Assembly: GCF_030684315.1 (NCBI RefSeq)
Contig: NC_081390.1
Coordinates: 12,958,001 to 13,022,000 of the forward strand
Length of the DNA stretch: 64,000 nt
Reading direction: 5' to 3'
Origin: Stegostoma tigrinum
Taxonomy: Eukaryota
In this document: piece after piece, positions 6,113 through 61,075 of the stretch
Layout: every line of letters begins with the position of its first letter
Position numbering within the stretch: position 1 is the stretch's first letter
Notes under the pieces: model-generated
Seen by the model: the letters and a program-made list of their open reading frames with translations, nothing else
The model's database searches: none
Told to the model about the DNA's origin: nothing
Program-made: the position numbers and the translations under genes

Positions 6113-6430
6113 TAGAATTTCTAAAGTACAGAAGGTGGCATTTGGCCCAGTGATTCCACATTAACCCTCCAAACAGCATCCCACTCAGAGCAACACCCCT
6201 GCTCTATGACTGCAAGCCTGCATTTCTCGTGGCTAATCCACCAAGCCTGCACATCCCTGGACACTATGGACAGTTCAGCATTGCCAATCAACCTAACCTG
6301 CACATCTCTGGACTAAGAGGAAACCCACACAGACACAGGGAAAATGTGCAAACTCCAAACAGACAGTTGCCTGAGGGTGGAATCAAACCCAGGTCCCTGG
6401 TCATGAGGCAGCAGCACTAGCCACTGTGTA
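6113..6430 (-). mobile_element. HE1-type SINE
   Basis: Reverse-complement match to 32760-33061. Confidence 0.8.
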
Positions 6431-13497: not shown

Positions 13498-15454
13498 CTT
13501 ACGTTACATTCTATTGGAAGACGGGATTTCCCTGTCATGTATAATGCAAACTGTGGTGGGGATTATGGGCTGCCAATGTAATATCAGTTGTCTAGATAGG
13601 AGGTGGGGATAAACTGCCTAAAAAAAACAGACTCTCAGACACCACGTTTAACCTTTTCTTGTTGAATAGATTTAAGTTAAAATACGGCCTTAGGATCTAT
13701 AATCCAAGATCAAATTTCTAAATGTTTGGAAAATGTGTAAATAGTCAAAGGGAGTCTGTTATGTACCTCCACAAGTTGTTTGGACTGTATCATTACTTTG
13801 TAATTAAACACATGGAAGCATTAAATTATAGAATGCCAACTTTAGGGAAGTAAAGAAACAGCACACAATCACTTACTTTGGCAGAGTTAGGAAATTGTGT
13901 TACTGGATAATTGAAGGCTTGAGTCAATTTAACTCATCAATGAGACATGGGGTTTAACTAGATCAGTTGGCTGAATGGCTGATTTCGCAACAAAGTGACA
14001 CCAACGCTCTGGGTTGGCTTCCTATACCGGTTGAAATTACAGTAAAGGCCCTGCCTTCCCAAACCTCATTTGAAGTGTGGTGATGCTCAGGTTAAGCTCT
14101 AATGCCAGAGCGGACCATGGCTCTCCCTGAACGTGGTGACTTTCAAAAGGATAATGGAATCATGTGTAGAAAGTTTTCAGTCAGCGACCTGTGATGTTGT
14201 CATTGAAGGAAAGTAACTCAAAATCATTGATCCTGCACCTAAAAATGTGATGGGGAAAGAGTCTCAGTCCAGATACATAGAATTCCTCAGATGTTGTGTG
14301 GCCTCCTGATACAGAATGAGGCTTATTCTTCTGATATGCTGTCAGCCTGAAAGAAAACTAAGTTTGACAGATTTGGTTTCCAGTCAGATGGGGAGTGGGG
14401 CAGAGCTGCAAGTACAGAGTCTGCAGTTACAGAGGCTCATAGATAGTGCGAGCATGGAGGTGGCTCAATCTCTACCCAGAGAGAGGGCTTGATCCAATTT
14501 GGGAGGTGTCTGATCCCCGAGCTGAGGAGGAGGGAAGTGTTATAAGATTAATCTTCTTCATAGTGTACCATGTTTCCTGGTAAGACTCAACAGGGCTTGT
14601 TTGGTTGAGTGTAGTAGAGGAAAACCACTTGGTAGTCGAATGAGAAACACCTTTTATCTTACACAAGATATAGTTTATTTCATTAAAGCAACTCAGTACA
14701 AATTACATCGATATGACATGTATTCTTACTCAGACGGAGCATCCCCCCCCACCCCATATGTACATAAAGATAAGCTTTAATGAATAATGTATATTTTTGC
14801 CATAAAAAATCATTTATGTTTCTCCACAAACTTTACTGATTGAATGTTGCCTTATTCAAGTGAACAGGAGACTCCTTGACACCTCAGTTCCAAGGTGCAT
14901 GTCAGGGAAAATTTGCACAAACTTTGGATTAGTTGTGTGTGCTGAGGAGAACTCGACGTAGTAGCAATTTCTTGATTGAGTTCTGGGCGAATGGCTATTG
15001 TTTTGTGTTTGGACAATACAGCAGTAAGTTCAGCACAACATTGTGGGCCGAAGGACCTGTGCTGTGCTGTACAGTTCTATGCTATATGTTCTTGCATCCA
15101 GCCCATGAAGCAGATATCATCTGTCTGCCTCTCTTTTCTGTGCATGGAAAAGTTAAAAAAAATTCCAAGCAGGTAGCTCCTCTCTTTTTTCCTTGCCAAT
15201 TAACCTCTTGAAAAAAAGAGGAAGAACAGCTTCAAGGACTATGAAAGAGTGAATCCTCAATGGTAAATTGAGAAGCCAGGGTTCCACAACCCCATGTCCT
15301 TAGCAAGGAGTCAAATAGAACGAAAAGGAAACTGGAGGAAAACATCTCAGCAATGCCTAGAATCTGGTCTGGTGACAGAAGTGTGCTTAATGGATCTTCT
15401 TTGTTTCTTCCTCGCCTGAAGTATTGTCTCTTGCGCGTGTGTGTACGTGTGCTG

Positions 15455-15702
15455 CACGGATGCTGCCTGACCTGCTGTGATTTCCAGCATTTGTTATTTT
15501 CGATACAGATTCCAGCATCTGAAGTAGTTTGCTCCTGAAAGATTTTAAGATCCGTTTCTCTTCAGCTTAGTGCAATGGCTACAGTCACTTTTTCCCACGT
15601 AGGCCACAGTTACAAGAAAATCATTGTCCTTCCAACATTTTAGGACCAATAGACATTAATGCCTGAGGCAAATTGTCAGGATCTGCAGGGCACCTCACCT
15701 GC
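15455..15702 (+). repeat. ~248-bp direct repeat, copy 1 (copy 2 at 17365-17612)
   Basis: Colinear from CACGGATGCTGCCTGA to GGGCACCTCACCTGC, including non-TE sequence; roughly 85-90% identical by eye. Confidence 0.9.
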
Positions 15703-16611: not shown

Positions 16612-16778
16612 ATGTCAAAGGAGGCAAATCAAACCGGTGGCAATCCCAGTTTTTCCAAGAATTCCAGCCCAAATGCCAAAATGCCTACAGTCATGGAGCT
16701 GGAGGAAATCTTACGTCAAAACAGGGTTCCGCTCAGCCGCATCGACGAGGTCTGGCCTAATCTATACATAGGAGATAT
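16612..16778 (+). CDS. DUSP13A: DUSP13A (MDSP)-like atypical dual-specificity phosphatase, coding exon 1
   Basis: ATG at 16612, reading MSKEANQ...[32 protein letters not shown]; phase-2 donor AT|GTAAGT at 16779. Resembles human MDSP PSILELEELLR...RVDEVWPNLFIGD. Missing from the ORF track because it is under 60 aa. Confidence 0.9.
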
Positions 16779-16926
16779 GTAAGTACTCCTTCAAACGGCA
16801 GAAACACCGTTGGCAAGGTCAGTAGCATTGATTATACAAAAACGTGAAATGCGGATGGCACAGAGTGGGCTGGTAAGAGAAGCTAAAATGACGCCAGCTT
16901 GTCAAAGCTATCACTAAACTTCAAGC

Positions 16927-17083
16927 TGCACCAGAGGATCAGGAAAGCTGATGCATCAGAAGGGGCTGGGCCTGAGGTGTCGGCTTTCCTGCTGCTTTGG
17001 TGCTGCTTGGCCTGCTGTGTTCATCCAGCTCTACACCTTGTTATCTTAGATTCTCCAGCATCGGCTGTTCCTACTATCTCTCC
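16927..17083 (+). mobile_element. Short non-autonomous PLE-derived element with 15-bp TSD
   Basis: pLTR-type tail (..TGCTGCTTGGCCTGCTGTGTTCATCCAGCT..) with a degenerate hammerhead; CACTAAACTTCAAGC at 16912-16926 and 17084-17098. Confidence 0.75.
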
Positions 17084-18107
17084 CACTAAACTTCAAGCAG
17101 TTTGGTTGTATGCTGGGTGGGGTCGTTTCAGTAATTTCAAGGCTTCTGAATTCTCACTGTGTGGCTGGCTTAATCTTTTACTAAATTGTCCAATCCTGAG
17201 ACACGTTTTCTACGAACTTTTAGTACCAGTATCGTGGGCTAAAACAGAATGCAAACAAAAACTTTTCACACTCTTTAGCAGAGCTGACATGAAGTCACTT
17301 CATTACTTCATGTCAGCTCTGATGAAGAGTCATCCAGACTGGAAATGTTAGCTCGCTGACCCTCCACGGATGCTGCCTGACCCGCTGTGATTTCCAGCAT
17401 TTGTTGTTTTCAATGTAGATTCCAGCATCTGAAGTAGTTTGCTCCTGAAAAATTTTAAGATCCGTTTCTGTTTAGCTTAGTGCAATGGCTACAGCCGCTT
17501 TCCCACGTGGGCCACAGTTACAAGGCAATCAATGTACTTCCAACATTTTAGGACCACAACAGACATTTACGTCTGAGGCAACTTATCAGGATCTGCAGGG
17601 CACCTCACCTGCTGGTTCAATCAATGCTTTCAAAATAGAGATGGCAAGAATGGAATGAGAAGTGAAACCTTACCATTTTACCTGCCCAGCAAATCTCTTC
17701 TCACCAGCAGGAGGAGTTAAACATCCCTTTGCCACTGACAATGACCCTGTGCCTGCGTCACCAGCCTCAAAATCTCTCCACCCTCAACCTGTCCATCTTC
17801 CTGCTCACCTATCCACACCACCCTTCCCACTGACCAACCACAATAATCCCTCACCTGCATCCACCTATCTCCATTTCACCTCTTCTCCCACAGACCCCAA
17901 CCCCCTCCTGTATTTCTGTGTTCCCCTCCCCCTCCCAAGTCCTGACAAAAGGTTTTGGCCCAATACATTGACTTTCCTACCCCTCAGATGCTGTCTGATG
18001 GACTGTGCTTTTTCAGCTCCACATTTATTGACTCTAGCTTCCAGCATCTGCAGTCCTTATTGTTTCTGATCAGCTGAAGCTGGCAGGATGGAGGTAAGGT
18101 GAGGATC

Positions 18108-18431
18108 TTAGAATCCCTCCAGTATGGAAGCAGGCCATTCAGCCCATCGAATCCACACCATCCCTCCAAAGACCATCCCACCCAGACCCACCCTCTACCC
18201 CTATCCCTGCAATCCCACGCCCTCCTGCCAAGGCATTATAGGCAATTTAACACAGCCAATCCACCTAACTTGCACATCGTTGGACTGTGGAAGGAAACTG
18301 GAGCACTCGGAGGAAACCCACACAGACACAGGGAGAATGTGCAAACTCTACACAGACAGTCGCCTGAAGCTGGAATCGAACCCAGGTCCCTGGCGCTGTG
18401 TGGCAGCTGTGCTAACCACTGAGCCACCGTG
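18108..18431 (-). mobile_element. HE1-type SINE
   Basis: Reverse-complement match to 32760-33061. Confidence 0.85.
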
Positions 18432-18919
18432 ATGTGACAAAACATTTTTGCACAACTCTCAACATTAGCTGGATATTTGCATACTTCATTTCAGGAATTT
18501 TGTTTTTTTTTAGCTAGGCATCTGAGAGATAAGTAAATTAATGATTCCTTGAGGTTCCTTGAGTAATTACTGAGTATTCTTATAATTAATGTATGTCAAA
18601 GGGAGTAAGGGAACACCAGGCTACAAAAGTAACAACAAATACAACAACAGATGGGAAGTATCTGGTTTGCTGCTTAACCAAGGAACCGCAACCTGCAAAC
18701 TTATGTTTCAACAAAGTAGCAGTGTCATGGGCGATAGCGAGCTGAAACATTACACCAAACACTTTGAATCATGTGTCAAGTGTATAAATAAACTGGGACA
18801 GTTGTTTTAGTTCGAAGACTTGAATTGATTCAATCCAGACTGATGTGCTGATCGCTTGACATTTTTAAAACGGTACCCTTTTGGCTGTGGAGACCTCAAG
18901 ACCAACTGACATTCCTTCA

Positions 18920-19023
18920 GATATAGTAGGAACTGAAGAAGGGTCTAGGCCCGAAACGTCAGCCTTTCTGCTCCTTTGATGCTGCTTGGCCTGCTGTGTT
19001 CATCCAGCTCTAAACCTTGTTAT
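18920..19023 (+). mobile_element. 104-bp PLE-derived element with intact hammerhead core and 14-bp TSD
   Basis: CTGAAGA-A-GGGTC-TA-GGCCC-GAAA-CGTC at 18933-18960; CTGACATTCCTTCA at 18906-18919 and 19024-19037. Confidence 0.8.
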
Positions 19024-19800
19024 CTGACATTCCTTCAAATAGTCTGTAAAATATGATGACACAGAATTATATAGTTATTACAGCAAAGAAAGATGCTGTT
19101 TAGTCCATCACATCTATGAAAACTTTTCGTACAGTAATCCAGTGGGTTCCATTCCCCATTCCATCCCTGTAGCCTATTCCCTTCAAACTTATTCCCTTCA
19201 AGATCCCAACCAACTTCCTTTTATAATCATTTGTCACCTGTGCTCATGGACTATTACACTGGCTGAGTAAAAGAGTTCTTCATTGCATCACTCCCCACAC
19301 AAAACATTCAACCTGTGCCCCATACTCCTTGCATCATCATTTCAGGAATGGCCTTCCTTGTTTACCTTATTCAAGCCCATCATAACCTCTGGACTCCACT
19401 ATCCAAGAACTTGTCAATCTCTTGTGCTCCATGCAGACCAATCTCACCTTCTCTAATCTAACCTCCATTCAAGCTAGAACTTCTCACTGTCAAATCATTC
19501 TGGTAAATCTCTACTTTATCCTCAGAAAAATCCTGACTGGTACAAGGAAGAATATTTGGTAACGTGGTCTGGTGAGTGTAAAAGGAATATTACGTTAGGA
19601 AATACTGCACCTGAGGAGTGCCAGTTTGATGCTGACACAATTGGGTTGAAATTGGGGAAACTGAACCATTTTCATAAGTGGCTTCCCTGACATTGACAAA
19701 CACAATCCCTTGCCAACTGTGCAGAGAAGGATAAGCCAATAACATTGTAAACATGTTTGTGCATTCTTGAAGTATTTTATAATATCTTTTGCTTCATTAG

Positions 19801-20018
19801 GACAATAGCTCATGACAGATTTCGTCTTTGGAAGTTGGGTATCACTCATGTGTTAAATGCAGCACACAAACAGGTTGCGTCCAGTGGATGCCAAGATTTC
19901 TATGGTCCCAGTGTGGATTATTATGGTATTGCAGCTCATGACGTACCAACGTTTGACATTGCTGCCCATTTCTATTCTGCAAGTGACTATATACATAAGG
20001 CACTCGATATATTGGGAG
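19801..20018 (+). CDS. DUSP13A: DUSP13A-like coding exon 2
   Basis: Acceptor ttcattAG|G at 19800; TIAHDRFRLWKLGITHVLNAAH...YYGIAAHDVPTFDIAAHFYSASDYIHKAL includes the general-acid Asp. RF.LWKLGITHVLNAAH and AHD.P.FDI are MDSP-like. Donor G|GTAAGA at 20019; 218 nt, frame-compatible with both neighbours. Confidence 0.93.
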
Positions 20019-20939
20019 GTAAGAGACCATTCTAGCATGTCAAATAGTCCTATAAGCTGGCTTGATTCTTAATTTCATTACAAAGATAATAAAAAGAGAT
20101 GCTGTGGATAATGTTGTTCAGTAATTCAGTTAATTAAGGTTATAATTAACTGAACTATATGTAGTCCAAGGTTTTATCCTCATAACTAACTTCCTAGAAT
20201 CAGCCAGTGCTAAATTTGTACATCTATCAGGAGTTCCACATTTGGCTTTATCAATTTGGGTAAGTACAGGAAAATTTCTTTTTCGTTTGTTCACGGGATG
20301 TGGATATCATTGGCTAAGCCAGAATTTACTGCCCATTCTCGCTTGCCCAGAGGGTACATTGCTGGATGTCCAGAGTCAAATGTAAGCCAGACCAGGTATA
20401 GTTGGCAGGTTTCCTTCCCTAAAGGATCAAATGAACCAGATGAGCTTTTACAATATTCAACGGTAGTTACATGGTTGCCATTAGGTTAGCTTTATATTCC
20501 AGATGTTAACTGATTTCAGATTTCACCAGCTGAAATGGTGGGACTCAAACCCATGTCCCCGGAACATCAATCCAGGATTCTGGGCTACTAGGGCAGATGC
20601 TGCCCACTACGGCACTGCCTGTCCAATTGGGTCACCATCGATAATGTACATTCAGTGATCTCTTCTGGAAGTGTACGTTCGGGAACCTTTTGAGTTTAAA
20701 CAGCCTTCTTTATCATAGATGATCTGGCCATACCTGTGGCATAAAAGTGGCAAATTTTGTGCATTAGAATTAGTTGAAAGAAAGGGCGTTGGAGTTGTTT
20801 CTTAATAAGTAAAACAAGACCCCCTCCCCAATTTACAGACCACCTGTGCTTGAATCAGACTCCTGAAGGCTAAAATCCATCTCTGACAATCATTCCCACA
20901 TTACGAGATAACAGGACAGGCAAACAACAGTTATTAGAG

Positions 20940-21270
20940 TTAAGGATAAGGAACATCTTAAAGAAAAGTTTGAGAGAGTGAATTTTGGATGCATAGGGCA
21001 GCTAGCTACATGGCTATCAATGATTGAGTGAAGGAAATTGGGATGCAGGAGACCAGAATGAGAGGATTGCAGATATCTCGGAGGTGTGTTTGAGGAAGGG
21101 CAGACGGCGGTTACAGAGGTAGGCAAGGCTGAGGCAAAGGAGGGATTTGAAACCAAGGACAAAAATTTTAAAACTGAGGCCATAGAGGACCAGGAAGCAA
21201 TGTTGATGTGATGGGCCTTAGTATGCGTTAGGATACGTACGGCAAACTTTGATACAGCAGGTCCTGTCAA
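20940..21270 (-). mobile_element. L2-type LINE ORF2 C-terminal remnant
   Basis: Minus strand ..PPRYLQSSHSGLL..SII.. resembles L2 ORF2 ends. Confidence 0.5.
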
Positions 21271-21778
21271 AAAAAATGGTACTTCATAAACCATGCAACA
21301 GTTATGTACAACAGAAAATATATGGATGAACAAAGCAGAATTCATTTCTACCCCAAAACATCCTTAATTACATTCACTGTTAATGCTAAAGAAAAGACTG
21401 ATTGACACTGTGCCCCTTGGCTGTTAAAGCTCAATGCTTGTAATAGTTTGCAATGTAAAATGTGGCTTCACTGTAACCATGGGCTCAATACTCAAATGTT
21501 AATTTAAGGCTAAGTTGTCAATTTGTAAAAACACAAACACAGATGGGACAATTACCCAAAAAGCAAAAAATCCATACGATAGTGGATTTCTGTAATGGTT
21601 AGGCTGTTTTGAAAAAGTAGATTGTCCCAATTGTTGATGAGTTAGTTCTATTGTTAAAAAAAAAACTCACTTTGATCAATTCTTCTTGATTTTCATCAAG
21701 ATGTTTGAATGTCAAAAGCTTTTAATGCTGTTTTGTCATTCTCAGGAGCTCAAAAAAGCTCAAAAACTTTCTAAAGTT

Positions 21779-22472
21779 TTAGCAAAGATTTGTAGCTCGG
21801 GTTGTGGGGGAGATTGTTGACTTGCTCACCGAGCTGGCTTGTTCTCGTTCAGACATTTCGTCAACATGCTAGGTAACATCATCAGTGGGGCCTCTGAAGA
21901 AGCGATGTTATTCTACTCTGCTTGGAATTTATACTGTCTGCTCCATTAGGGTGAGTACTGTCATTTCCAGTTTTGTTCTCTATTGGTTTGTATAGGGTCC
22001 AATTGTTTTTGTTTGTTGATCAAATTATGGGTTGAGAATTGTTCTGCTAGGAGTTCCCATGCATGGCTGTGTTTGACTTGGGCTGCTATGGTTACATTGT
22101 CCCAGTTAAACTGATAGCCTTCACTGTCAGAGTGTACTGATTTTAGGGAAAGTTCATCATGTCGTTTTGCTTCTAGCTGATGTTCATGTATTCTGATGGC
22201 TAGTTTCCTTCCTGTCTGTCTGATGTAATGCTTGTGGCCGTCAGGTGTGGCATGGTATTCTGCATGTTGGGGGAATAGAGTTTTCAATCCTTGTGAGTGT
22301 TTGTCATTGAGTGGCTGTGGGCTTGTGCGCCGCATGATTCCTAGTGGTCCTAGGAGTCTTGTTGTAAGTTCTGATATGTTCTTGATATTGGGCTGTGTGG
22401 CTAGTGTGTTAGGATGTACTGTGTCCTCTTCTTGTTGTCTGTTTAGAAGGCAAGTGCAGATGAAGTTCTAGT
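21779..22472 (-). mobile_element. Penelope/Poseidon-type PLE 3' fragment (GIY-YIG + pLTR with hammerhead motif at 21852-21885)
   Basis: ORF 21961-22335 has HYIRQTGRKLAIRIHEHQL; minus strand CTGATGA-TGTTACCTAGCATGTTGAC-GAAATGTC. Confidence 0.85.
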
Positions 22473-22477
22473 TCTGA

Positions 22478-23330
22478 ACTAGACTCCAGTCATAATATGT
22501 TGGAATTCAGTACTATAATGAAACAGGCTACTGTTGAGGAAATTTTTAAAGAGTGAATAAAACGTTCAAGAAATTAAATTCAGAAAAATGTACAATAAAT
22601 CTCACAGCCTTCTCTGTCATAGAAAATATAATGATAGTCCTTTTTAATGATGCTGTGTATTCCAGTCTTTAGAATGGCTACCTCAGTACCGCAGAATCAT
22701 CTATCATAGTCTCAGGAAGAAAGAACAATAAAAGCTGTCCATTTTTCTCAGAAGCCAAACTATAGGATTTAAAAGTATCTTAGCTGCTGAAATATTGACA
22801 TTAGCAGAAGGTATAGATACAGCGACGTATGTAAACAATGTTCTAAAGGAAATGCAATCTCAAAAGTCTGCCCATAGAAGGTTATATGTGGACAACTGTT
22901 CTCTTTGGGACAAAGTACATTTGACAAAGGGCATCACTGAGAAAATGTTGAGGATCAGCCTTCTAGCATCAAAGAAATATTAGAAAGAAAAAGGATTTCC
23001 AAAATAATATGGGCTGTTGCAAATCACCAGTTGTTAGATTATTTCATAGAAGTGCTTGCTCCAAGGAATTACTGAAGAACCTCAAAGACGGATGTCCGGT
23101 GGTATGAGGAGTTATAAGAACATTTAAAAAAAAAGCTTGTGTATAGGCTTGTTTGTGACTAAAAATGTTGCTGTTGATGGTTTAAAGAAAGAAAGGAAAA
23201 TATGAATTGTTGATTGCATTGTATGGAATACGAAGAAAAAATGTTTTTTACAGGTTATCTTAATTTACATTACTTTTAGTTCATAATTATATATTTCCAA
23301 AAGTTTTATTTAAAAAGACGAGGGAAGTTT
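22478..23330 (+). mobile_element. Ty1/copia LTR-retrotransposon remnant (RT C-terminus, RNase H, PPT), GalEa-like
   Basis: MLEFSTIMKQATVEEI, FNDA, KSILAAEILTLAEGID, YVDNCSLWDKVHLTKGITEKMLRI, HQLLDYF; purine tract 23312-23327 followed by TGTAAT. Confidence 0.7.
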
Positions 23331-23687
23331 GTAATTTAGCAAGGAGTTGGGTATGTGTTTGGGATCAATTATTGATTCATTAATTGACTGGGCAGTTATT
23401 GATTGGGAATGTGGTCTCTTGTGGCACACTGGTAGTGACCCTACTTTGAGCCAGAAGGTCTGGGTTCAAGCCCCACCGGCAATAAGGTGTATAATAACAT
23501 CTCTGAACAGGGTGATTAGAAAAATAGGTAAGACTGAATAATAAATCAACTCTATCTACCAAAACAACAGCGTCATTTTCTGACATTTTTGACATTTCAG
23601 CAGATCCACCTGAACACCTTTGCTCATGACCTCCACCCTGCACAACTCCCTGCCCCCAGTACTTCAAAAGAGCTGTCAGTCTCTGAC

Positions 23688-23845
23688 TCAGACATCACAA
23701 GAACTGCTGGTGTCAGAGATAACAGTGTGGAGATTGAGGAAAACAGCAGGCCAGGCAGAAAGGGTCCTGACCTGAAACGTCAACTTTCCTGCTCCTCTGA
23801 TGCTGCCTAACCTGCTGTGCTCTCCAAGCTCCACACGGTGTTATC
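23688..23845 (+). mobile_element. Short fold-back PLE-derived element with 12-bp TSD, later partly tandem-duplicated
   Basis: TCAGTCTCTGAC at 23676-23687 and 23846-23857; inverted arms; 3' half of a hammerhead (GGGTCCTGACCT-GAAACGTC). Confidence 0.75.
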
Positions 23846-24053
23846 TCAGTCTCTGACAGACTGACTGGCGGCCCTCAGTAGATAACACTTTCAACCCCTG
23901 GGGAGGCAGGCCAGGCAGAAAGGGTCCTGACCTGAAACGTCAACTTTCCTGCTCCTCTGATGCTGCCTAACCTGCTGTGCTCTCCAAGCTCCACACAGTC
24001 TCTGACAGTCTGACTGGCGGCCCTCAGTAGGTAACACTTTCAACCCCTGGGGA
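23746..24053 (+). repeat. Recent tandem duplication, period 160 bp
   Basis: 23746-23904 repeated at 23906-24053 with an 11-bp deletion and about 2 substitutions. Confidence 0.92.
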
Positions 24054-25754
24054 TGCTATCTCTGCTTAATTGGCTTATGGTTTGGTGAGCCTTCACAAAT
24101 AGAGACAGTGCGAGTCTCCAGCTGGCATGCAAAACATCTCATCAAGATTCCGCCTGCTACTTCCAGCTCTTTTGAAGTTTATTTCAAGCTATAAAAACTA
24201 ATATTAACAACTGTACTTTAATTTTAATAAAAGCTTTGTTATTCTCAGAATCTGTTTTGATTCAACAAACAGGAGGAAACTTGTAGACTTCACAAAAGAT
24301 CAAGTCATGCACTCACGAGTAATTAATCAAAGCTGCATATTTCTATGGATGAAGTTAAACAGCCAAGATTGTATTTTATTCATAGGATTAAACTTTTTTC
24401 ACTGTCGAATGAGCTAGTTGTCAATTTTAGTACAGTGATGCAAACTATGAAGCTGTGGCATTTAAGATTTTGTATGTAAGCATGACACATTGTTTGGCTA
24501 CCATACTTAGAAAGGTTTTGGGATGTGCCAATCTCACCACACTATCGTGTATTGGTAGGTAACACAGGCCTTAAAGAACAGTATTAATAAAGCGAAATAA
24601 AAAGTCCATTCTGTCTAGAAAGTTCTGCACCAAAAGGCGCAACATCAAACTGATTTCAGTAATCGGTAAATTAAATCCAAAACAAACCTGACTCCTGGAA
24701 TTGAAGGCATGATTAACAACAATTAAAATCTAATGGATTTCAGGAAAGGGTCAATAATTAGATGCTGCGTACTTAAAAGAGCACTCAGGTTATAATTTGG
24801 AATGTTGGTTACTCTTGTTATAAAGCACAAACTAACCGTCCTGTCCTACAGTGAAATTGTGATGCTTCAACACAGTCACAGGACAGAAAACAGTGCACAG
24901 CAGGGCCATAAGGGCAGATGACATTGTCGGCAGGAAGTGAGGTTCTATCCAAAAAGGAAGATAGAAAAGCTCAAAAAATTAAACCATTGACTGTCAAAAT
25001 TAACAACATGAATGTCAATCTCAGAGAGAGCATCTTTTAGGAAAGATATTAATTTGAGACTCATCCGCCTGATCAGGGGTGAAAGATCATATGGCTCAAA
25101 TTGAAAAAAGAGAAGGAATGTTCTTCCAGTGTCCAACCACAATATTGGTGTTCCTTAATTCCCAAGACCACCCGCAAGACTTAACCTTATTTTAGGAGCT
25201 CACATACAGTATATGGGTTCGGGCCTAGATACAGCTATTGTGTCACACTTGTATGAATAACCATTGATTTTAAGGACGAACATCTTAAAAACCTATTTTG
25301 ACACTACAGTTTTGAAGTACAGCAGTTGAAATGTGACTGTTAATCACCTACTGGTCGGCAGGGGGAGCACTACAACAACATTCACAAGATTTCACAGACC
25401 AGGTCCCGATCCAATATAATTGAATTTAAGAACTGCAGATGCTGCAAATCTGAGACAAAAGCAGAAATTGCAATGGAAACTCAGTAAGTCTGGCAACATC
25501 TGTGGGAAGAAAACCTTCTGCTGAGGTTTTCAAGCAATTTATGTTTTTGTTTCAGATCCTGATCCACTTCTGTGCAATCTTTCCCCTACTCCATTCTGTA
25601 CTTCTTCTGGCTGGGCATAGTTTCACAGGTACCAGCTGCTCCTGGTACAATGCCTGTATGACCATTCCTCGTGGGTGAGCTATTGCGCTGGAAATGGAAA
25701 AGCAAAGTTTACTCCTACCTTGCTCTTTTTCAAGTGTAAGCTGGTGATATTGGT

Positions 25755-26110
25755 GAGGAGCTGGTGTAGTGATAATGTGGCTGGACCTATAACCCTGAAG
25801 CCTGAAGTAATGTCCTGGGGAAATGTGTTCAATCACAGCAGCTCATGATGTTTGAGTTCTATGAGAGGAAAATAAAACTCGTAGAGTTTAGTTTTCTTTA
25901 TATAAGCCTGATGGCAATCATATTACTAGAGTCAATTGGTCAGTAAAAACCCATCTGGTTCACTAATACTAATACCATCCTTACCTGGTCTGGCCTACAT
26001 GTGACTCCTGACCCACAGCCATGTGGTTGACTCTTAACTGTCCTCTTTGCAGTTAGGGATGGGTTATAAATGCTGCCCCAGCTGGTAATTCCCACATCCC
26101 ATGAATAGAT
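25755..26110 (+). mobile_element. Second SINE family sharing its 3' tail with a LINE (other copies ~7200-7530 -, 7950-8170 -, 20280-20615 -, 29525-29730 +, 31165-31500 -, 47215-47560 +)
   Basis: Recurrent CCCATCTGGTTCACTAAT..CTTACCTGGTCTGGCCTACATGTGACTCC..GGGATGGG.AATAAATGCT..CCCACATCCC. Confidence 0.7.
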
Positions 26111-26447
26111 TTTAAAATACTGTGTTCGCTGGTTATATTCACCCAATCTGCTCCACTTATAAAACATTCCACTGGGAAATTTGCTGCCTGGATTTAAACC
26201 GTCAATCTACAGGAAATATTCAACATGGAGCCGTATAACTGAATGTTAATCTCCTGTATTTTAAACATTGTTGTTAATGTCACAAAGCAAAATTAAAATC
26301 ATGAGACATATTCCGTCTGTTGGCATTGGCTAATAGTCCCCACGGCTAGTCTGAATCAGTGTCTAATTACAAAGTGGTTTTGTTCTGTCACATTCCAGGT
26401 TATAAATACAGTATTACAGAAGATGCTACGATGTACAAAATGATACA

Positions 26448-26668
26448 GAGATAACAAGGTGTAGAGCTGGATGAACACAGCAGGCCAAGCAGCATCATAG
26501 AAGCAGGAAAGCTGACGTTTCGGGCCTAGACCCCTCTTCAGAAAATGAGAATTTTTGTTTCAGATCCTGATCCACTGCCTGCTCCTCTGATGCTGCTTGG
26601 CCTGCTGTGTTCATCCAGCTCTACACTTTGTTATCTCAGATTCTCCAGCATCTGCAGTTCCTACTACC
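26448..26668. mobile_element. Fold-back PLE-derived element with minus-strand intact hammerhead core (26514-26541), ~60 bp upstream of the DUSP13A-like exon 3 acceptor
   Basis: Inverted arms (gagataacaaggtgtagagctggatgaacacagcaggccaagcagcatc / gatgctgcttggcctgctgtgttcatccagctctacactttgttatctc); minus strand CTGAAGA-GGGGTC-TA-GGCCC-GAAACGTC; TSD-like TA(C/T)A(A/G)AATGATACA at 26434 and 26669. Confidence 0.8.
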
Positions 26669-26730
26669 TATAGAATGATACATTTTATCCAGAAATTTAA
26701 AACAGTGTTTTGTGGTTTTCTCACCCACAG

Positions 26731-26930
26731 GGAAGATCTTTGTACACTGTGCTTTCGGATACAGCAGGTCAGTCTCCTTAGTACTGGCCTACCTCATGAT
26801 TTATCATCACCTTTCTCTGCTCGATGCAGTGAAGACAGTGGCTTCTCATCGACGGATATTTCCCAATCGAGGGTTTTTAAAGCAGTTACGAAACTTTGAC
26901 ATAAAATTACAACAGGAAAGGATTGTTTGA
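26731..26930 (+). CDS. DUSP13A: DUSP13A-like coding exon 3 (catalytic HCxxGxSRS, stop)
   Basis: Acceptor cccacAG|G at 26730; KIFVHCAFGYSRSVSLVLAYLMIYH...IFPNRGFLKQL...*. Spliced CDS 167+218+200=585 nt, 194 aa. AATAAA at 27334-27339. Confidence 0.93.
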
Positions 26931-29900: not shown

Positions 29901-30214
29901 AACAAAGACAAACCTGAAAGACTTCTTATAATAAAAATGAAATAAAGCAGACACTGGAAATCTGAAGTAAAAACAGCAAATGCTGGAGAAATTTGACAGG
30001 CCTGGCCACATCTGAGGAAAGAAAAACAAATTTAACATTTTGGGTCTGATGTGACTCTCCTTCCAGTTTCAGAGAGTCATGTTGGACTCGAAACGTTAAA
30101 TCTGTTTCTGTCTGAAACATTTCTTTCCTGGTCAGTAGAATCAAAACAGATCACAAACAGTAGAGTGTATAAAACCATTTTTTGTTACATAGACATCTGT
30201 GGAAATTCTGGAAA

Positions 30215-30600: not shown

Positions 30601-30636
30601 GCCCTTAGCTAGAACATGATATGATCTCTCATATCA

Positions 30637-30925
30637 GAGAATCTCAACAGTATCGAAACAGGCCCTTTGGCCTAACAAGTCCACATTAACTCCCAGAGCA
30701 TCCCACCCAAACCCATCCCCCTATAACCCACCTAATCTACACATCCCTGAACACTATGGGCATTTATCATGGCCAATCCACCCTAACCTGCACATCTTTG
30801 GACTGTGGGAGGAAACCAGAGCACCCAGAGGAAAATCCACACAGACAGTTGCCCAAGGGTGGAATCAAACCCAGGTTTCTGGTGCTGTGAAGCAGCAGTG
30901 CTAATCACTGAGCCACTGTGCCACC
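30637..30925 (-). mobile_element. HE1-type SINE
   Basis: Reverse-complement match with an internal deletion. Confidence 0.8.
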
Positions 30926-32672
30926 CCAGCCACTGTACTGCTCTATTTTCCATTGATCAATCTCCATTGATCTATTTTGAAGCTGAGACTGCCACTCTAG
31001 ATAAGCCTGTTCAATTAAGCCATTGCCATCAAGCACAAAGCTTTCTTTTACATCTGTTCTGGTTGAAGTGTTGTCAAACCAGTTGTATAGGTAGTCTGAG
31101 CTCAGCACACATCAGCAATTCCTCTCCCTCTATCTGGCAGATCAGAAACTGAGAAGTTTTTTTTTCTTTTGCTGTTCCATGAGGTGTGAACGTCACAGGC
31201 AAGGCCAGTATTTGATGCCCATCCCTAACAGTCCTTGAATTGAGTGGCTCGCTGGATCACAAGAGTTATCTATGTTGCCCACACAATGGCTAGACCAGAT
31301 AAGGATAGCAGATTTCCTTGCCTTAAAAGGCATTAGTGAACTAGATGGGTTTTTACAACAATTGATGTGCCATCATTACTGAGTCAGGCTTTTTATTCCA
31401 GATTTATTAATTGAACTAAAAGTTGCTATGTCAGGATTTGGATCCATATCCACAGAGCATTAACTTGTCCGTGTAGATTACTAATCCAGCAACATTACCG
31501 CTTCACCCGCATCTGTCTGCTTTTCTGCTTGCTCCTTATAAATCTTGATTCTCTTCTGGATCAAATATCTGTCTAACTCTGCTTTGAACATATTCAATGG
31601 CCAAGTTTTCACTGCTGGCTGAGGTCAGAAATCCCAAACACTAACAATTCTCTGACAGGTCCTTCTCCTCATCTCCAACTTGAGTAATGTTCAATGTTGT
31701 TGTTCATGTGGGTCCAAGATTCAAGTCAACCCCAGAACTTCAGGCCCTAACCAAAATTTCCTTCAGGGGCCTCAAGACATATCTGTGAAGCACCGGATTT
31801 GCATGTCACACAATGCAAGAAAATGTTTATTAACTGTGGCATACTCCTTTTCTGCTGTTGCAAGATAATTTAGTCACAGAATCATACCTTCTGTCTAGAG
31901 TCTGTAATATCCGCATCTCACTCCAAACGGGTTTCATAAAAATGCGCATTATATATTAAATAAATAATTAGAGACAACACTTCCTAAAGCACCACATGCC
32001 TGTTTGTCTAATTACTGGCACTGCTTCGGGCACCTTGCACTTGCCAACTCAAAAAGCAACCACTTTGACTCAAAATACCTTTCTCCTTAATAAACAATGA
32101 CATGCAAACCAACGCCCCTCCGCCTCCGGCCACCATGATTCAGTCTCCTGCAGCCTAGCCTTCAAGTGAACTCTACTTATAACTACAGAATCTCTCCACT
32201 GTACATCATAAGGTTACTTTTCATATCTGTACCCTATCAAGGACAAACACATAGAGCGAGGCAGACGACAAACCCAACCTATGGAAACATTTCCTTTCTG
32301 CTTCTAACACAGAAAGAAAGCAAAGACAATGGCTTAAGGCCCAGAAAGATATTCAATCCAGAAACAAATCCTATAATGAGTTCTTTGTGCTTCAAAAATG
32401 CTAATTAAATACATACTAATTACTAAAAAAGCATGTTCTATTTGTGTGTACAGCCACTGCATCAAAGCAAAGAATTTAATACAAAACCTTAAAATATAAA
32501 TGATAGGCAACAATAATTTATTAAAAGATTGCAGGCATCCCCTGTCAATCAAAGTATATCTGTATTCAGTCATCGACTGACCTGCTATCTGGTATATTGC
32601 CTCGTCTTGTCATCTATACAGTGTCAACGAACACAATATGATGATGTGGATTATGTTGCAATAGCATACATT

Positions 32673-32707: not shown

Positions 32708-32759
32708 ACTGTGACTTTACTATCAGAACAGCTTGCAGTTAACAATGTCATGAGAACAT

Positions 32760-33061
32760 GGGCGCCACGGTGGCTCAGTGGTTAGCACTGCAGCCTCACA
32801 GCTCCAGGGACCCGGGTTTGATTCCAGCCTATGGTAACCGTCTGTGCGGAGTTTGCACATTCTCCCCGTGTCTGCGTGGGTTTCCTCCGGGTGTTCCGGT
32901 TTCCTCCCACAGTTCAAAGATGTGCAGGCTAGGTGGATCGGCAATGCTAAATTGCCCATAGTGTTTAGGGGGATGGGTCTGGGTGGAATGCTCCAACAGG
33001 TAGTGTGGACTTGTTGGGCCGAAGGGCCTATTTCCACAGTAACGGAATCTAATCTAATCTA
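32760..33061 (+). mobile_element. HE1-type tRNA-derived SINE
   Basis: tRNA-like head GGTGGCTCAGTGGTTAGCACT...GGGTTTGATTCC (A/B boxes), core TGTGCGGAGTTTGCACATTCTCCCCGTGTCTGCGTGGGTTTCCTCCGGG, CR1-like tail and (AATCT)n. Confidence 0.88.
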
Positions 33062-42855: not shown

Positions 42856-43142
42856 ATGGTACAATGGTTAGCACTGCAGCCTCACGGCACCAGTAACCAG
42901 GTTCAATTCCAACCTTGAGCAACTGCCTGTGAGGAGTTTTCACATTCTCCCTGTGTCTGCATGGGTTTGCTCCAGTTCCCTCCCACAGTCCAAAGATGAG
43001 CAGGTTAGGTGAATTGGCTGTGTTAAGTTGCCCCTGGTGTTCAGGGATGTGTAGGCTTTGTAGGTTAGCCATGGGAATAGGTGGAATATTGTTTGGCAGG
43101 ACAGTATAGGCTGAATGGCTGCTCCCATGCTGTAGGGAATCA
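42856..43142 (+). mobile_element. HE1-type SINE
   Basis: GGTTAGCACTGCAGCCTCAC..GGTTCAATTCC head plus core. Confidence 0.8.
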
Positions 43143-45402: not shown

Positions 45403-46653
45403 TTCCGGATGTGAGTTTGCTCGCTGAGCTGGAAGGTTCGTTTTCAGACGTTTGGTCACCATTCTAGGTAACATCATCTGTGAGCCTCCGATGAAGCGCT
45501 GGTGTTATGTCCCGCTTTCTATTTATCTGTTTAGGTTTCCTTGGGTTGGTGATGTCATTTCCTTCGTTCGTGGTGTCATTTCCTGTTCTTTTTCTCAGAG
45601 GATGGTAGATTGGCTCCAAATCAATACGTTTGTTGATGGAGTTCTGGTTGGAATGCCATGCTTCTAGGAATTTTCGTGCGTGTCTCTGTTTGGCTTGTCC
45701 TAGGATGGATGTGTTGTCCCAATCAAAGTGGTGTCCTTCCTCATCTGTATGTAAGGATACTAGTGATGGTGGGTCATGTCATTTTGTGGCTAATTGATGT
45801 TCATGTATCCTGGTGGCTAGTTTTCTGCCTGTTTGTCCAATGTAGTGTTTGTCACAGTTCTTGCAAGGTATTTTGCAAATGACGTTCGTTTTGCTTGTTA
45901 TCTGTGTATGGTCTTTTAAGTTCATTAGCTGCTGTTTTAGTGTGTTGGTGGGTTTGTGGGCTACCGTGATGCCAAGAGGTCCGAGTAGTCTGGCAGTCAT
46001 TTCGGAAATGTCTTTGATGGAGGGGAGAGTGGTTATGGTTTCTGGGCTGGCTTTGTCTGTTTGTTGGGGTTTGTTGCTGAGAAATCGGCGGACTGTGTTC
46101 ATTAGGTACCCTATACAGACAACAAGCAAAACAAACGTCATTTCCAAAATACCTTGCAAGAGCTGTGACAAACACTACATTGGACAAACAGGCAGAAAGC
46201 TAGCCACTAGGATATATGAATATCAACTAGCCACAAAAAGACATGATCTACTGTCACTAGTATCCTTACATACAGATGAGGAAGGGCACCACTTTGATTG
46301 GGACAACACATCCATCCTAGGACAAGCCAAACAGAGACACGCATGAAAATTCCTAGAAGCATGGCATTCCAACCGGAACTCCACCAACAAATGTATTGAT
46401 CTGGAGCCAGTCTACCATCCTCTGAGAAAAAGAACAGGAAATGACATCATCAACACAGGAAATGACATCGCCAACCCAAGGAAACCTAAACAGATAAATA
46501 GAAAGCGGAACATAACACCAGTGCTTCACCGGAGGCTCACTGATGATGTTACCTAGAATGGTGACGAAACGTCTGAAAACGAACCTTCCAGCTCAGCGAG
46601 CAAACTCACATCCAGAACGTCAACCTGAGCTACAAATCTTCTCAAAACCCGCT
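45403..46653. mobile_element. Fold-back Penelope/Poseidon-type element (two inverted GIY-YIG/pLTR arms) with 13-bp TSD, in intron 2 of the middle DUSP gene
   Basis: NVI.KIPCK.CDKHYIGQTGRKLATRI.E.QLA is encoded on both strands; 45403-45912 is an inverted copy of ~46109-46617; ACCAGCAAAGAGG at 45390-45402 and 46654-46666. Confidence 0.9.
46537..46576 (+). ncRNA. Intact minimal hammerhead ribozyme motif (sense to the DUSP pre-mRNA)
   Basis: TCA-CTGATGA-T-GTTACC-TAGAAT-GGTGAC-GAAA-C-GTC-TGA: all core nucleotides present, helix II GUUACC/GGUGAC, palindromic ACGU in place of helix III, GUC cleavage triplet, 3-bp helix I. Confidence 0.8.
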
Positions 46654-51287: not shown

Positions 51288-51802
51288 AGAACATAGAACA
51301 TAGAACATAGAACAGTACAGCACAGAACAGGCCCTTCAGCCCACGATGTTGTGCCGACCATTGATCCTCATGTATGCACCCTCAAATTTCTGTGACCATA
51401 TGCAGGTCCAGTAGTCTCTTAAATGACCCCAATGACCTTGCTTCCACAACTGCTGCTGGCAACGCATTCCATGCTCTCACAACTCTCTGTGTAAAGAACC
51501 CGCCTCTGACATCCCCTCTATACTTTCCTCCAACCAGTTTAAAACTATGACCCCTCATGCTAGCCATTTCTGCCCTGGGAAATAGTCTCTGGCTATCAAC
51601 TCTATCTATGCCTCTCATTATCTTGTATACCTCAATTGGGTCCCCTCTCCTCCTCCTTTTCTCCAATGAAAAGAGTCCGAGCTCAGTCAACCTCTCTTCA
51701 TAAGATAAGCCCTCCAGTCCAGGCAGCATCCTGGTAAACATCCTCTGAACCCTCTCTAAAGCATCCACATCTTTCCTATAATAGGGCGACCAGAACTGGA
51801 CG
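51288..51802 (-). mobile_element. Young CR1 LINE 3' end with (ATGTTCT)n tail
   Basis: Uninterrupted ORF2 C-terminus 51382-51768; AGAACAT repeats at 51288-51313. Confidence 0.9.
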
Positions 51803-52495: not shown

Positions 52496-52589
52496 CGACA
52501 GGATTCACACTTGCAGTCAAAGTAACTTCAACTATTGGGATACAATATCCAATGGTATAACATTCAACATTAAAAATCTGTTCAAAAAC

Positions 52590-52800
52590 AAAGCTGGCTG
52601 GAAAAACTCAGCAGGTCTGGCCGCATCTGTTGAGAAAAGCAGAGTTAATGTTTTGGGTCCAGTGATCATTCTTCAGAACTCAGACTTAAAATGTTAACTC
52701 TGCTTTCTCGCCACAGATGCTGCCAGACCTGCTGAGTTTTTCCAGCAATTGTTGTTCTTGTTTCTGACTTCCAATATCTGCAGTTCTTTGATTTTGTTTT
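52590..52800. mobile_element. Fold-back PLE-derived short element with degenerate hammerhead (similar degenerate copies ~5950-6100, 6775-6865, 10035-10140, 17315-17445, 17750-18065, 25430-25555, 29945-30125, 54275-54360)
   Basis: Arms gctggaaaaactcagcaggtctgg / ccagacctgctgagtttttccagc; minus strand CTGAAGA...CCCAAAACATT. Confidence 0.7.
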
Positions 52801-53357
52801 GAAAGTTCTGCTCAATGGTTTCCACAACAATTAATGTACGTTTAATAACAAAAAGCTGCTCGAACTAAATAATCTGATATTGATAGTTTAGTTCATTAAT
52901 AACTGACATAGCCTTGTTCAGATAGGGGATCTAAACAGAAAGATGTAAGTTAATGTCCTCATTGATCTTCCTGGCAACAAAAGGACAAGACAAATAGATT
53001 TGATTTCATCGTGCTTTAATTACTATCATTGCTATCCAATACCAGGGCAGCAATGCAGATATAATGGAATATCTTGTACTCTGCCTTGTCTTTTTCTTCT
53101 ACTTGTGGGTGTGAATGACTGATAAGAAAAAAGTTTAAAAATAGATAGAGCTCAAGCTGAAGTAAATGAACTTGATGCATATTTTTCTGCTGGCATACAT
53201 GAATCAAATACTATTTCAGAATCTGGATGATTGTCCATATAAAGTAAGGCAGTAAAAAATGTCTAAAAGTTTTTGGAAGACTATACATGTTGTCTATCTT
53301 TAGGTCTAGGCTTGTGCCTAGAGAAAAAGACTCTGTGTGGTGAGAGTACTTTAAGGT

Positions 53358-58092: not shown

Positions 58093-61075
58093 AAAAACAA
58101 CTGAAAGAACTGCGGATGCTGTAAATCAGGAACAAAAACAAAGTTGCTGGAAAAGCTCAGGAGGTCTGGTGGCATCTGTGAAGGAAGAAACAAAGTTAAT
58201 GTTTCGGGTCCGGTGACCCTTCCTCAGAACTGATGGTGGCTGGGAAAACGCCAGTTTAGATGCAAGAAATGGGGAGGTGGATGGGGTAGGGAGTAAATGA
58301 TAGGATAGAGCCCACAGAGAGAGAACGCAGTTGGACAGACAAAGGAGTTGCTAATGATCAGGCTGGGAGGGTGAATAGTTGTTAATGGGGACTGTTAGTG
58401 ACTAACAACGTGGGGGCGTGTAGTGGCAGGCTATGTGGTAACAAGGCCCGGTGTGTGGGGTGGGGGGACTGGGACATGGGGGAGTTAAAGCCCTAAAATT
58501 ATTGAACTCAATATTGAGTGCGGAGGGCTGCAGGGTTCCCAAGTGGAAAATGAGGTGTTGTTTCTCCAGCTTGCGCTGGGCTTTGCTGGAACACTGGAGC
58601 AAGCCGGAGACAGAGATGTTGGCCAGTGAGCAAGGTGGTCCGTTGAAATGGCAGGCAACAGGTAGTTCAGGGATTTTTTTACGAGCAGAACGTAGATGCT
58701 CTGCGAAGTGGTCGCTAAGTCTACGCTTCGTTTCCCCAGTGTAGAGGAGGCCATATTGTGAGCAGTGAATGCAGTAGGCTAGATTGTGGGAAGTGCAGGT
58801 GAAATGTTGCTTCACCTGGAAGGTATGTTTGGGCCCTTGGATACTGGGGAGGGAGGAGGTAAATGGGCGGGTGTTGCACCTTCGCCGGTTGCAGGGGAAG
58901 GTGCCATAGGGCTGTGGGGAGGTGTTGGGGGTGAAGAAAGTGAGGACCAGGGTGTCCCTGAGGGAACAGACCCTGCAGAAGGCGGACAAGAGAGGGGAGG
59001 GGAATATGTGTCTGGAGGTTGCATCTCACTGGAGGTGGCGGAAATGGCGTCTGATGATCTTCTGGATGTGGATGCTGGTGGGATGGTCAGTGAGCATAAG
59101 GGATTGAGGATAAGGTAGGATAAGGCTTTTGTGAGAGGGAAGAGAAGGGGTGAGGGTGGAAGTGCAGGAAATGGGGCGGACCTGTTTGAGGGCCTGATCA
59201 ACAATGGAGCTGGGAATCCTCGGTTGAGGAAGAAGGTGGACATTTTTGAAGCTCCCTTGTCAAAGTTGGTCTCATCTGAACATATGTGACGGAGACAGAG
59301 GACCTGAGAGAATGGGATGAAGTCTTTACAGGAAGCAGGGTGTGAGGACATACAGTCCAGGTAGCTGTGGCAGTCAGTGGGTTTGTAAAGGATATTTGTG
59401 GCCAGTCTATCCCCAAAAATGTAAACAGAAATGTTGAGGATGGGAAGGGAGGAGTCAGAGATAAACCAGGTGAATGTGAGGGCAGGGTGGAAATTGGAGG
59501 CCAAATTGATGAAGTTTTCCAATTCTAGAGAGAGAGGGAAGCAGCACTGATGACATCATCGATGTATCCGAGAAAGAGTTGTGGGTGGGTGCCTCTGAAA
59601 TAGGACAGGAACAAGGAATGTTCCATGTACCCCATGAAGAGACAGGCTAACTGGGGCCCATGTGGGTACCCACAGCAACCCCTCTTACCTGAAAAAAATG
59701 AGGGCAGTTGAAAGAGAAGTTGTTGAGGGTGAGGACACACTCGGCCAAGCAGGGGAGTGTAATAGTGGGTCCTATCGCAGGTTCAGGTCCTTGCTCCACA
59801 AAGAAGCAGACAGCCCTAAGACCATCCTGGTGGGGAATGGACGTGTAAAGGGATTGCAGGACCATGGTGAAAAGGAGGAGACTGGAACCGATAAACTGGA
59901 AGTTTTGAAACCAGTGTTAGGTCTCAGAGGAATCATGGGCAGGGATTGGACCAGTGGGGAGAAGACTGAGTCAAGGTAGGAAGAGATAAGTTCTGTGGGG
60001 CAGGAGCAGGCTGAAACAATGGGTCTGCCCCGGACAGTCCTGTTTGTGGATTTTTGGCAGGAGGTAGAAATGAGCTGTGCAGGATTGGGGGCCTATTAGC
60101 TGGAAGGCGGATGGAGGATGATCACCACATGAAATGAGATCAGTAACCGCAGTGGATACAATGACCTGATGTGCCATGGTGGGGTCATGGTCCACGGGAA
60201 GGTAGGAGGGGGTACCTGAGAGCTGGCGCTCAGCCTCTGTAAGGTAGAGGTCAGTACGCCAGACTATAGCAGCACCACCCTTATCGGCAGGCTTAGTGAC
60301 AGAGTTAGGGTTGGATCTGAGTGCACGGAGTGCAGTCAGCTCGGAGGGAGATAGGTTGGATTTAGTGAAGAGGGCAGCAAAATTGAGATGGCTAATGTCA
60401 CGTTGACAGTTCTCGGGTAAAAGGCCGGAGGGAGGGGTCCAGGTGGAGGGAGAGCGTTGGAACTGGGCGAAAGGGTCTGTGGGCTGGGAGAGGGCTCTTG
60501 TCCAAAGAAATGAACATAGAAGTGAAGACAGCAGGAGAAGAGTTCGGGGTCATGTCATGCCCAAAATCCCTAAAGGTGGAGATGCAGATGGATAAAGCTG
60601 AGGCCTTTGCTGAGTACAGAGCATTGAGGGTCAGACAGCAGAAGGTTAGGGGGGATGTGAATACCTTACAGGAGGTGGGGATGGGCGTGGGTGGGGGGTT
60701 TGGGGGAGGGGATGGAGTCAGAGGGAAGGGATGGGGTGGAAGGTCTAAGAGGGTCATGGGTATTTTTGAGTTGTTGCATCTGTGGGCCTTGATGCCTGAA
60801 AGGAAAGTTTCTTGTCAGCACAGCGAATGAGCTGGAGGATGAAGTGGAACTGCAGAGTGGTGCAGCCCTGAGCCAGTGTGTTGCAATGCTGTTAGAGAGA
60901 AAGGTTGAGAGTGCGCATGTGACGCCGCACAGCACAGAGTGTGGATCTCAGGATGTGGCGAGAGCAGCTGTCTGTGAAACATTGAACATCATGGAGATAA
61001 CTGTGATCCTGGGAGGATTCAAAACATGAGGGATGAAACTTCAGTTGAAATCCACGTGGGGCGGATCTGAGCCAG
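58093..61075 (-). mobile_element. Penelope-like retroelement (Neptune-type), degenerate RT + GIY-YIG, hammerhead-bearing 3' end, 13-bp TSD
   Basis: Minus-strand fragments SLYTSIPHQDGL, NNFSFN..FQVRGVAVGTHMGPS, FLGYIDD (PLE RT); FPCNRRRCNT linker; NLAYCIHC..LLYTGETKRRL..FAEH (GIY-YIG). AGTTGTTTTAACT duplicated at 58080-58092 and 61076-61088. Confidence 0.88.
58194..58231 (-). ncRNA. Minimal type I hammerhead ribozyme motif at the PLE 3' end
   Basis: Minus strand AGTT-CTGAGGA-A-GGGTC-ACCG-GACCC-GAAA-CATT-AACT: helix I (AGUU/AACU), CUGANGA box, helix II, GAAA box; one probable CpG-decay change (CGUU to CAUU). Confidence 0.7.

Follow-up and report, generated by a model that had tools for sequence, protein, structure and literature searches.

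Short ends of Penelope-like elements (PLEs) are common in the genomes of fish, amphibians and invertebrates. Here, a group of such ends is described from one stretch of the genome of the zebra shark, Stegostoma tigrinum (RefSeq assembly GCF_030684315.1, contig NC_081390.1, positions 12,958,001 to 13,022,000). The whole 64-kb stretch that was analysed is called the window, and coordinates are counted from its first base; four of the inserts, A to D, lie in introns of a DUSP13A-like gene. PLE inserts are described as having an inverted, 5′-truncated partner and a tail of 30–40 bp at one end only (PMC8557442), and the target-site duplications (TSDs) of Adineta PLEs measure 8–10 bp (PMC3846280). 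New Chlamys inserts have a reported median length of 128 bp, and intronic PLE expansion is reported in the whale shark. For PAc, from a Poseidon element of Anolis, both strands are cut and extended in vitro, the reverse transcriptase (RT) has two adjacent internal starts, and the 5′ end of the RNA sets the product length (PMC11167929). Twin priming of L1 gives junction duplications and templated inserts (10.1101/2024.08.27.596794).

Set beside these systems, the shark inserts are mostly ordinary, being new members of a PLE insertion pattern that is already known: minimal hammerhead ribozymes, TSDs, a tail on one side, an inverted partner and truncation have each been published for PLEs. Truncation, an inverted copy, a tail at one end and a TSD are all shared with insertions of endonuclease-bearing (EN+) PLEs (PMC8557442; PMC3846280; PMC2377424); the tail is approximately 33 nt here and 31–37 nt in the published elements, and in both the hammerhead lies in the pseudo-long terminal repeat (pseudo-LTR). 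The shark arms are very short, however, and the TSDs measure 12–15 bp rather than the 8–10 bp of Adineta. In addition, the inner ends of the shark inserts pile up at the 5′ edge of the hammerhead, which was not found for EN+ PLEs in the accessible text. This stop at the hammerhead edge is a single testable mechanistic lead that was not found in print: a literature search in which few subscription papers were covered returned nothing on such a stop, on twin priming in PLEs or on PLE ends from sharks.

With a probability of about 0.75, the inserts are short Neptune-type 3′-end copies with TSDs of 9–15 bp, in which the fold-back was built separately at each insertion by priming from two target ends; the twin-primed origin of the fold-backs, taken by itself, is very likely. 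A preliminary description of this DNA had placed four intronic insertions at 16927–17083, 18920–19023, 23688–23845 and 26448–26668, each a PLE 3′-end piece plus an inverted part of itself, and both the coordinates and this composition are correct. Its direct repeats of 15, 14, 12 and approximately 14 bp are exact for A, B and C, while that of D is a 12/14 match with 9 nt exact. Insert A (16927..17083, + strand; TSD 16912–16926 and 17084–17098, 15/15) has an inverted arm of approximately 33 nt, whose internal starting point in the element matches the target end over 5 nt, and then a sense arm from approximately +5 of the hammerhead core, counted from the C of CUGA, to the end of the tail. Insert B (18920..19023, +; TSD 18906–18919 and 19024–19037, 14/14) consists of 16 nt of inverted tail, joined through a 3-nt CTG microhomology to a sense arm that runs from CUGAAGA to a tail-less end. 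Insert C, of a related subfamily (23688..23845, +; TSD 23676–23687 and 23846–23857, 12/12), has an inverted tail-bearing arm of approximately 71 nt and a sense arm from approximately +5 to a tail-less end. In insert D (26448..26668, +; TSD 26434–26447 and 26669–26682), an inverted tail-less arm from 26448 to approximately 26548 is followed by filler and by a sense tail-bearing arm at 26578–26668, and the two arms are identical at 57/60 positions. Between inserts, the bodies of A, B and D are identical at 55–56 of 59 positions.

Among 3000 random intervals, an abutting exact repeat of at least 12 nt occurred in three and of at least 9 nt in five, and some of these hits are real inserts on which the random draw fell. 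In a looser repeat search, the score of 9 reached by insert D was matched in 13 of 150 random intervals; a score this common at random means that the TSD of D relies on its position at both ends. Separately, insert C has been duplicated locally in tandem (23746–23907 and 23906–24056), most of C plus approximately 60 nt of flank being repeated with a short deletion. As the copies are 99 % alike over 94 nt, this duplication is later than the insertion of C.

The architecture was compared in ten two-armed inserts (A, B, C, D, E, J, K, L and two of Poseidon type), leaving out G, which has a short 5′ hairpin. The 16-nt arm of B was missed and the junction of C overrun by the automatic alignment, and the arms of both were read from other alignments. 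Exactly one end bears the tail in all ten. The second end sits 32–43 nt inward in six and 57–96 nt inward in four, and the same one-tail geometry is seen in a 1.25-kb Poseidon-type copy. The inner junctions are all different (10/10). A tabulation of inversion breakpoints, which the preliminary description had proposed genome-wide, was made for the window only; none is common to two inserts, and thus no propagating fold-back family is indicated.

The junction of D holds 25 nt of filler (26552..26576, +) identical to 25544–25568, which is the end of insert E together with the right-hand target copy of E; the match is to the right and not the left copy. This sequence occurs exactly twice in the window, and its source lies approximately 1 kb upstream of the junction. 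Since a master element could not supply a locus-specific filler, the fold-back of D would have been made on site, after the insertion of E. An exact distant window match of at least 14 nt, other than family sequence, was found at one of nine junctions, that of D.

These junctions bear directly on whether the inserts are a family in their own right. Either a family of ribozyme-terminated mini-elements or products of truncation and inversion had been suggested; the unique inner junctions support the latter, and the former is not supported. It is likewise hardly credible, and already largely refuted locally, that the inserts are propagating fold-back mini-elements or non-LTR retrozymes, excised by the hammerhead and spread as small or circular RNA. 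Such an origin would fit the minimal hammerhead cores in B and D, the high density of copies and the existence of vertebrate retrozymes related to PLE pseudo-LTRs, one of them chondrichthyan (10.64898/2026.07.22.740005), but no junction is shared (0/10), the filler of D is specific to its locus, the window has no head-to-tail units with two intact hammerheads (CUGANGA being absent from the local duplicate of C), stem I is missing or of 2 bp, and the ends lie off the cleavage site. Although a type I hammerhead, kinship with PLE pseudo-LTRs and the lack of coding capacity are common to the shark inserts and to non-LTR retrozymes (PMC7229834; 10.64898/2026.07.22.740005), the retrozymes carry two or more complete hammerheads in head-to-tail tandem and have circular RNAs, whereas the inserts are scattered, joined one by one and arranged head to head. 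For Adineta Penelope, fold-backs have been proposed to arise when an antisense template primes itself (PMC3846280, Discussion), and the 26-bp hairpin at the 5′ end of G would suit such an origin. It is very unlikely, however, as no palindrome is centred on the junction in A, B, C or D, the arms are unequal and offset, those of B do not overlap at all, and the filler of D is foreign.

The origin of the inserts from PLEs, as earlier suggested, is supported by the alignment of their arms with the 3′ end (pseudo-LTR) of a long Neptune-type PLE (58093..61075, − strand). This element is 5′-truncated and frameshifted, with an RT, a CxxxxC linker, a GIY-YIG-like end and an exact 13-bp TSD, and it has an intact minimal hammerhead at 58200–58227 and a tail related to that of the short inserts. 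Searches with its frames gave RT/GIY-YIG PLE proteins, with 229 of 1774 candidates below E 1e-5, the best named matches being from Chiloscyllium punctatum and Hemitrygon akajei, and its C-terminal part is matched by 2858 representatives. Related proteins carry RT and GIY-YIG Pfam matches; the Pfam GIY-YIG match of the window copy itself is weak (E 0.085). The Cys-rich linker between RT and endonuclease is present with one Cys lost, the form in relatives being CxxxRCxTC. A zinc-finger-like Cys linker is a trait of Neptune and Nematis alike (PMC8557442), and the element is classed from its sequence as probably Neptune-type.

A Poseidon-type PLE fold-back (45403..46653, +) has arms of approximately 510–550 nt, identical at 478/514 positions, one with a tail of approximately 34 nt and one without, and an exact 13-bp TSD. 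The 13-bp TSDs that had been noted for the long PLEs are confirmed at 45403–46653 and 58093–61075, and the related tail at 58093–61075. Older Poseidon-type copies lie at 55871–57112 and 21778–22530. The first of these has a 1.1-kb inverted arm, a 110-nt arm starting from the hammerhead core and a decayed TSD of approximately 13 bp.

Sequences related to the short inserts were also sought elsewhere. A 25-nt body pattern matched no stretch in metagenome contigs, and a 16-nt pattern gave eight viral-contig stretches, whose likeness to B or D of at most 21 nt was taken as chance. In a word search of sequencing runs, 4 of 22 rows held at least half of the words, with no RNA holder among those listed. 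The predicted zebra shark Mx1-like isoform (P0271, residues 1–26) begins with a reading of the PLE tail, which places the subfamily in one named shark at the least; this start is possibly an exonisation or a gene-model artefact.

The preliminary description had also credited two inserts with a complete CUGAAGA-stem-GAAAC-GUC core. This holds for B, on the + strand (18933..18960; CUGAAGA, 4-bp stem II, GAAAC and GUC), and for D, on the − strand (26514..26541), antisense to the host gene, and for no other of the four; stem I is lost or weak in both. In B the 5′ strand of stem I has been swapped for inverted tail, so that the first two pairs mismatch and no pair is formed by the core. Insert C lacks CUGANGA and the core of A has decayed. 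The core is preserved in five of the 12 regions examined, namely those of the long Neptune-type element, one Poseidon-type copy and inserts B, D and G, although one stem II pair is broken in G. Next to the core, a stem I of 4–5 bp is found in the long Neptune-type element and G (4 bp in each); it has 3 bp in the Poseidon-type copy and falls to 2 bp in D and 0 bp in B. It is predicted that the hammerheads in A, B, C and D are carried as part of the pseudo-LTR and do not cleave. As no intronic copy with a complete ribozyme is sense to the host gene, cleavage of the pre-mRNA is not expected.

The pattern CTGANGA-gap-GAAAC occurs six times in the window against 1.43 expected, a count reached in 1 of 100 shuffles, and four of the six are inside PLE ends. 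Across 15 arms, 80.5 % of 82 stem I and II cells pair, versus 22–49 % in slid controls, and 33–204 of 500 shuffles reached the observed values. Rfam gave no hammerhead among five weak matches (E up to 5), and folding of four hammerhead regions gave z-scores that were not significant. Among 80 Neptune-like metagenome loci, a minimal hammerhead was found on the sense strand in 25 and on the antisense strand in none, in agreement with PMC4209133. CUGANGA, an extra nucleotide before stem II, a G–C pair and an ACGU palindrome in place of stem III are common to the metazoan PLE hammerheads of that report. Another shared trait is that truncated PLEs leave single copies here and there, some of them near each other but on opposite strands. 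In the shark, however, stem II is of 4–5 bp rather than 7–8 bp, and stem I is lost or weak in A to D.

To place the inner ends relative to the hammerhead, 23 Neptune-type arms were tabulated by hand, the inverted arm of G and the duplicate of C not being entered. Nine arms stop before the core and 14 reach it; for 12 of these 14, the end lies from −15 to +7 relative to the C of CUGA. With a constant hazard taken from the nine earlier stops, the probability of this is 6e-12, or 6e-6 with a tripled hazard and correction for seven windows. Nine of the 12 clustered arms are bounded unambiguously by a partner arm or by filler. H was entered as a long arm, although upstream it aligned with the long element no better than shuffles did (14/100). 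Given this pile-up, plain random truncation does not account for everything. The arm ends were considered as products of hammerhead cleavage and this was rejected on position: the cleavage site is at approximately +28, no arm out of 23 ends exactly there, and the nearest, the inverted arm of A, ends at approximately +25. Of the 25 metagenome loci with a hammerhead, four contain the region twice. In two of these, Neptune-like loci of other animals, the second copy ends close to the same edge, at +1 (L015:2-61 and 2413-2473) and at −9 (L029:21-158 and 3440-3577), and in the other two it extends 335 and more than 600 nt further.

The chances are roughly even that these stops are run-off cDNAs reaching a fixed RNA boundary, possibly the start of the element RNA. 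In Drosophila virilis Penelope, the 5′ side of helix I is where the intron ends (PMC4209133), which makes a splice boundary an alternative to a transcript start. A different source for the same edge would be a short non-autonomous sense RNA of approximately 140 nt, from the hammerhead edge to the tail, transcribed from solo pseudo-LTRs that have an internal promoter and mobilised in trans like a SINE, with the fold-back still made anew. The sharp 5′ boundary (all five core-reaching arms of A, B, C, D and F end at −10 to +5), the near-identity of the A, B and D bodies and the lack of a long copy of their subfamily in the window would suit such an RNA, as would the internal promoter of D. virilis Penelope (PMC2377424) and the non-autonomous PLEs of Chlamydomonas. 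It is nevertheless unlikely, as the boundary is common to several diverged subfamilies, one with a 3-kb member in the window, and the bases upstream of CUGA are gone from most of the short copies.

It is also possible, but rather doubtful, that the boundary is not an RNA end, and that RT stalls at a folded or protein-bound hammerhead, or the cDNAs anneal via its stems, on a long template that is otherwise randomly truncated. Stem II is self-complementary, both arms of K end at the core, one arm of J ends inside stem II, and PAc protein aids hammerhead folding (PMC11167929). The stops, however, lie at or just upstream of CUGA, beyond stem II, the solo copies F, I and M behave alike, and stems of only 4 bp fold weakly.

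From the observed TSDs, two arms, single tail, unique joints, filler and clustering, a sequence of steps for two-end priming may be inferred. The PLE protein would nick both target strands 12–15 nt apart, the TSDs supporting the consistent staggered cut of approximately 13 bp proposed earlier. One target 3′ end would begin cDNA at the tail start site, and the other would prime approximately 33 nt deeper in the element, or wherever a few bases happen to match. Each cDNA would then drop off or reach a fixed boundary just upstream of the hammerhead. This boundary is most likely the RNA 5′ end, because PLE RT starts within the RNA and the same start sites are also present near the 5′ end. Finally, the two cDNAs would be joined head to head through microhomology or through filler copied from nearby DNA. 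A more specific version can be offered only tentatively, at somewhat less than even odds: the inserts would be mass-produced ‘strong-stop’ products, in which Neptune RT starts from the 5′-proximal copy of the paired internal starts and runs off the RNA at the first hammerhead strand, and a two-ended complex with a 12–15 bp stagger makes one cDNA with the tail and one without. If true, this strong-stop cycle would explain solo minimal hammerheads, pseudo-LTRs of fixed size, the presence of the tail on one side only and the head-to-head fold-backs; it would also provide seeds for retrozymes.

Two nearby RT starts that define the tail and the extension of both strands are common to this proposal and to PAc, and a start codon beside the hammerhead is found in PAc as well as in the Poseidon-type copy at 46543 and in metagenome locus L013. 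PAc belongs to a different clade, however, and the main text of PMC11167929 does not link two-strand priming to fold-backs or to TSD length. With L1 twin priming, the priming of an inverted cDNA by the second target end, microhomology joins and fillers from nearby DNA are shared. Unlike L1, the PLE has no poly(A) priming and its second priming prefers a fixed site; the arms overlap by approximately 30–510 nt here against a median of 22 bp in L1, and the filler source lies 1 kb away rather than typically within 15 bp (10.1101/2024.08.27.596794). The inserts are a dense natural record of PLE integration, and the one-tail rule, the 12–15 bp stagger and the hammerhead-edge stop are countable in the shark assembly and testable with PAc in vitro.

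A number of points weigh against this interpretation. The arms overlap in nine of the ten two-armed inserts, for which one RNA copied once is insufficient, so that the model has to invoke either strand displacement or a second template. The window contains no long parent of the subfamily of A, B and D, the evidence comes from this one window, the TSD of D is exact over 9 nt only, and a TSD search at G, L, F and I found none. Likewise, none was found at seven inverted-repeat pairs in the metagenome loci. As regards the stop, the arm table was made by eye and the −15 to +7 interval was chosen post hoc; F, I and M, which make up three of the 12 in the cluster, are solo copies with neither partner arm nor filler to fix the upstream edge; and only one of five Poseidon-type arms halts at the core. 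An initiator-like motif starts at −6 or −7 in 5 of 14 rows, a count that lacks a chance control; of 18 metagenome loci, only two have it at −5 to −7.

Two reading frames were seen beside the hammerheads. In insert D, the hammerhead is followed by a 27-codon frame that begins with ATG (26590–26673), and the Poseidon-type copy is open from the ATG within CUGAUGA through the tail (46543–46653), as in PAc. Both may represent the start of the parent open reading frame (ORF). The first 60 aa of the long Neptune-type element gave no match in a protein search, and an overlap of tail and ORF start was not shown for this element.

A BLAST survey gave 21 clusters with PLE 3′-end sequence in the window, which resolve into 15 short Neptune-type pieces, the one long Neptune-type element and three Poseidon-type elements. 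The short pieces, one of which is the local duplicate of C, total 2750 bp (4.3 % of the window), and the estimate of about a dozen copies in 64 kb is borne out. Insert E (25414..25552, +), the source of the filler in D, is an older fold-back of a sister family with a 12/14 TSD. Insert K (29928..30111, −) is a fold-back with an 11/14 TSD, and insert J (52583..52801, +) has a tail-less inverted arm, a tail-bearing sense arm and a decayed, uncertain TSD. Insert L, at approximately 5950, is two-armed. Insert G (17270..17612, +) combines its 5′ hairpin with a near-complete hammerhead and a longer 3′ end. The PLE-end copies at 15452–15702 and 17362–17612 are 89.7 % alike, reach approximately 165 nt beyond the usual tail and stop at the same base; they probably represent a family in which RT starts more distally. 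That 15452–15702 is a local duplicate of G was rejected, as it has its own 14/17 TSD, inside a GT-rich microsatellite.

The host DUSP13A-like gene (16615..26927, +) has coding exons at approximately 16615–16778, 19801–20018 and 26733–26927. Inserts A and B share one intron and C and D sit in the next. The translated exons encode a dual-specificity phosphatase with an intact HCxxGxSRS motif, matching Pfam DSPc, and among PDB entries it is closest to DUSP13 isoform A (E 7e-26). Elsewhere in the window, a repeat family of approximately 300 bp, 68–85 % alike and SINE-like by size, is present at 6121–6435, 30633–30926, 32759–33054, 42862–43077, 52200–52496 and 53352–53709. Broken LINE-like reverse transcriptase/endonuclease frames, presumably CR1/L2-like, lie at 34161–35276, 37502–40149, 51382–51816 and 62654–63094.

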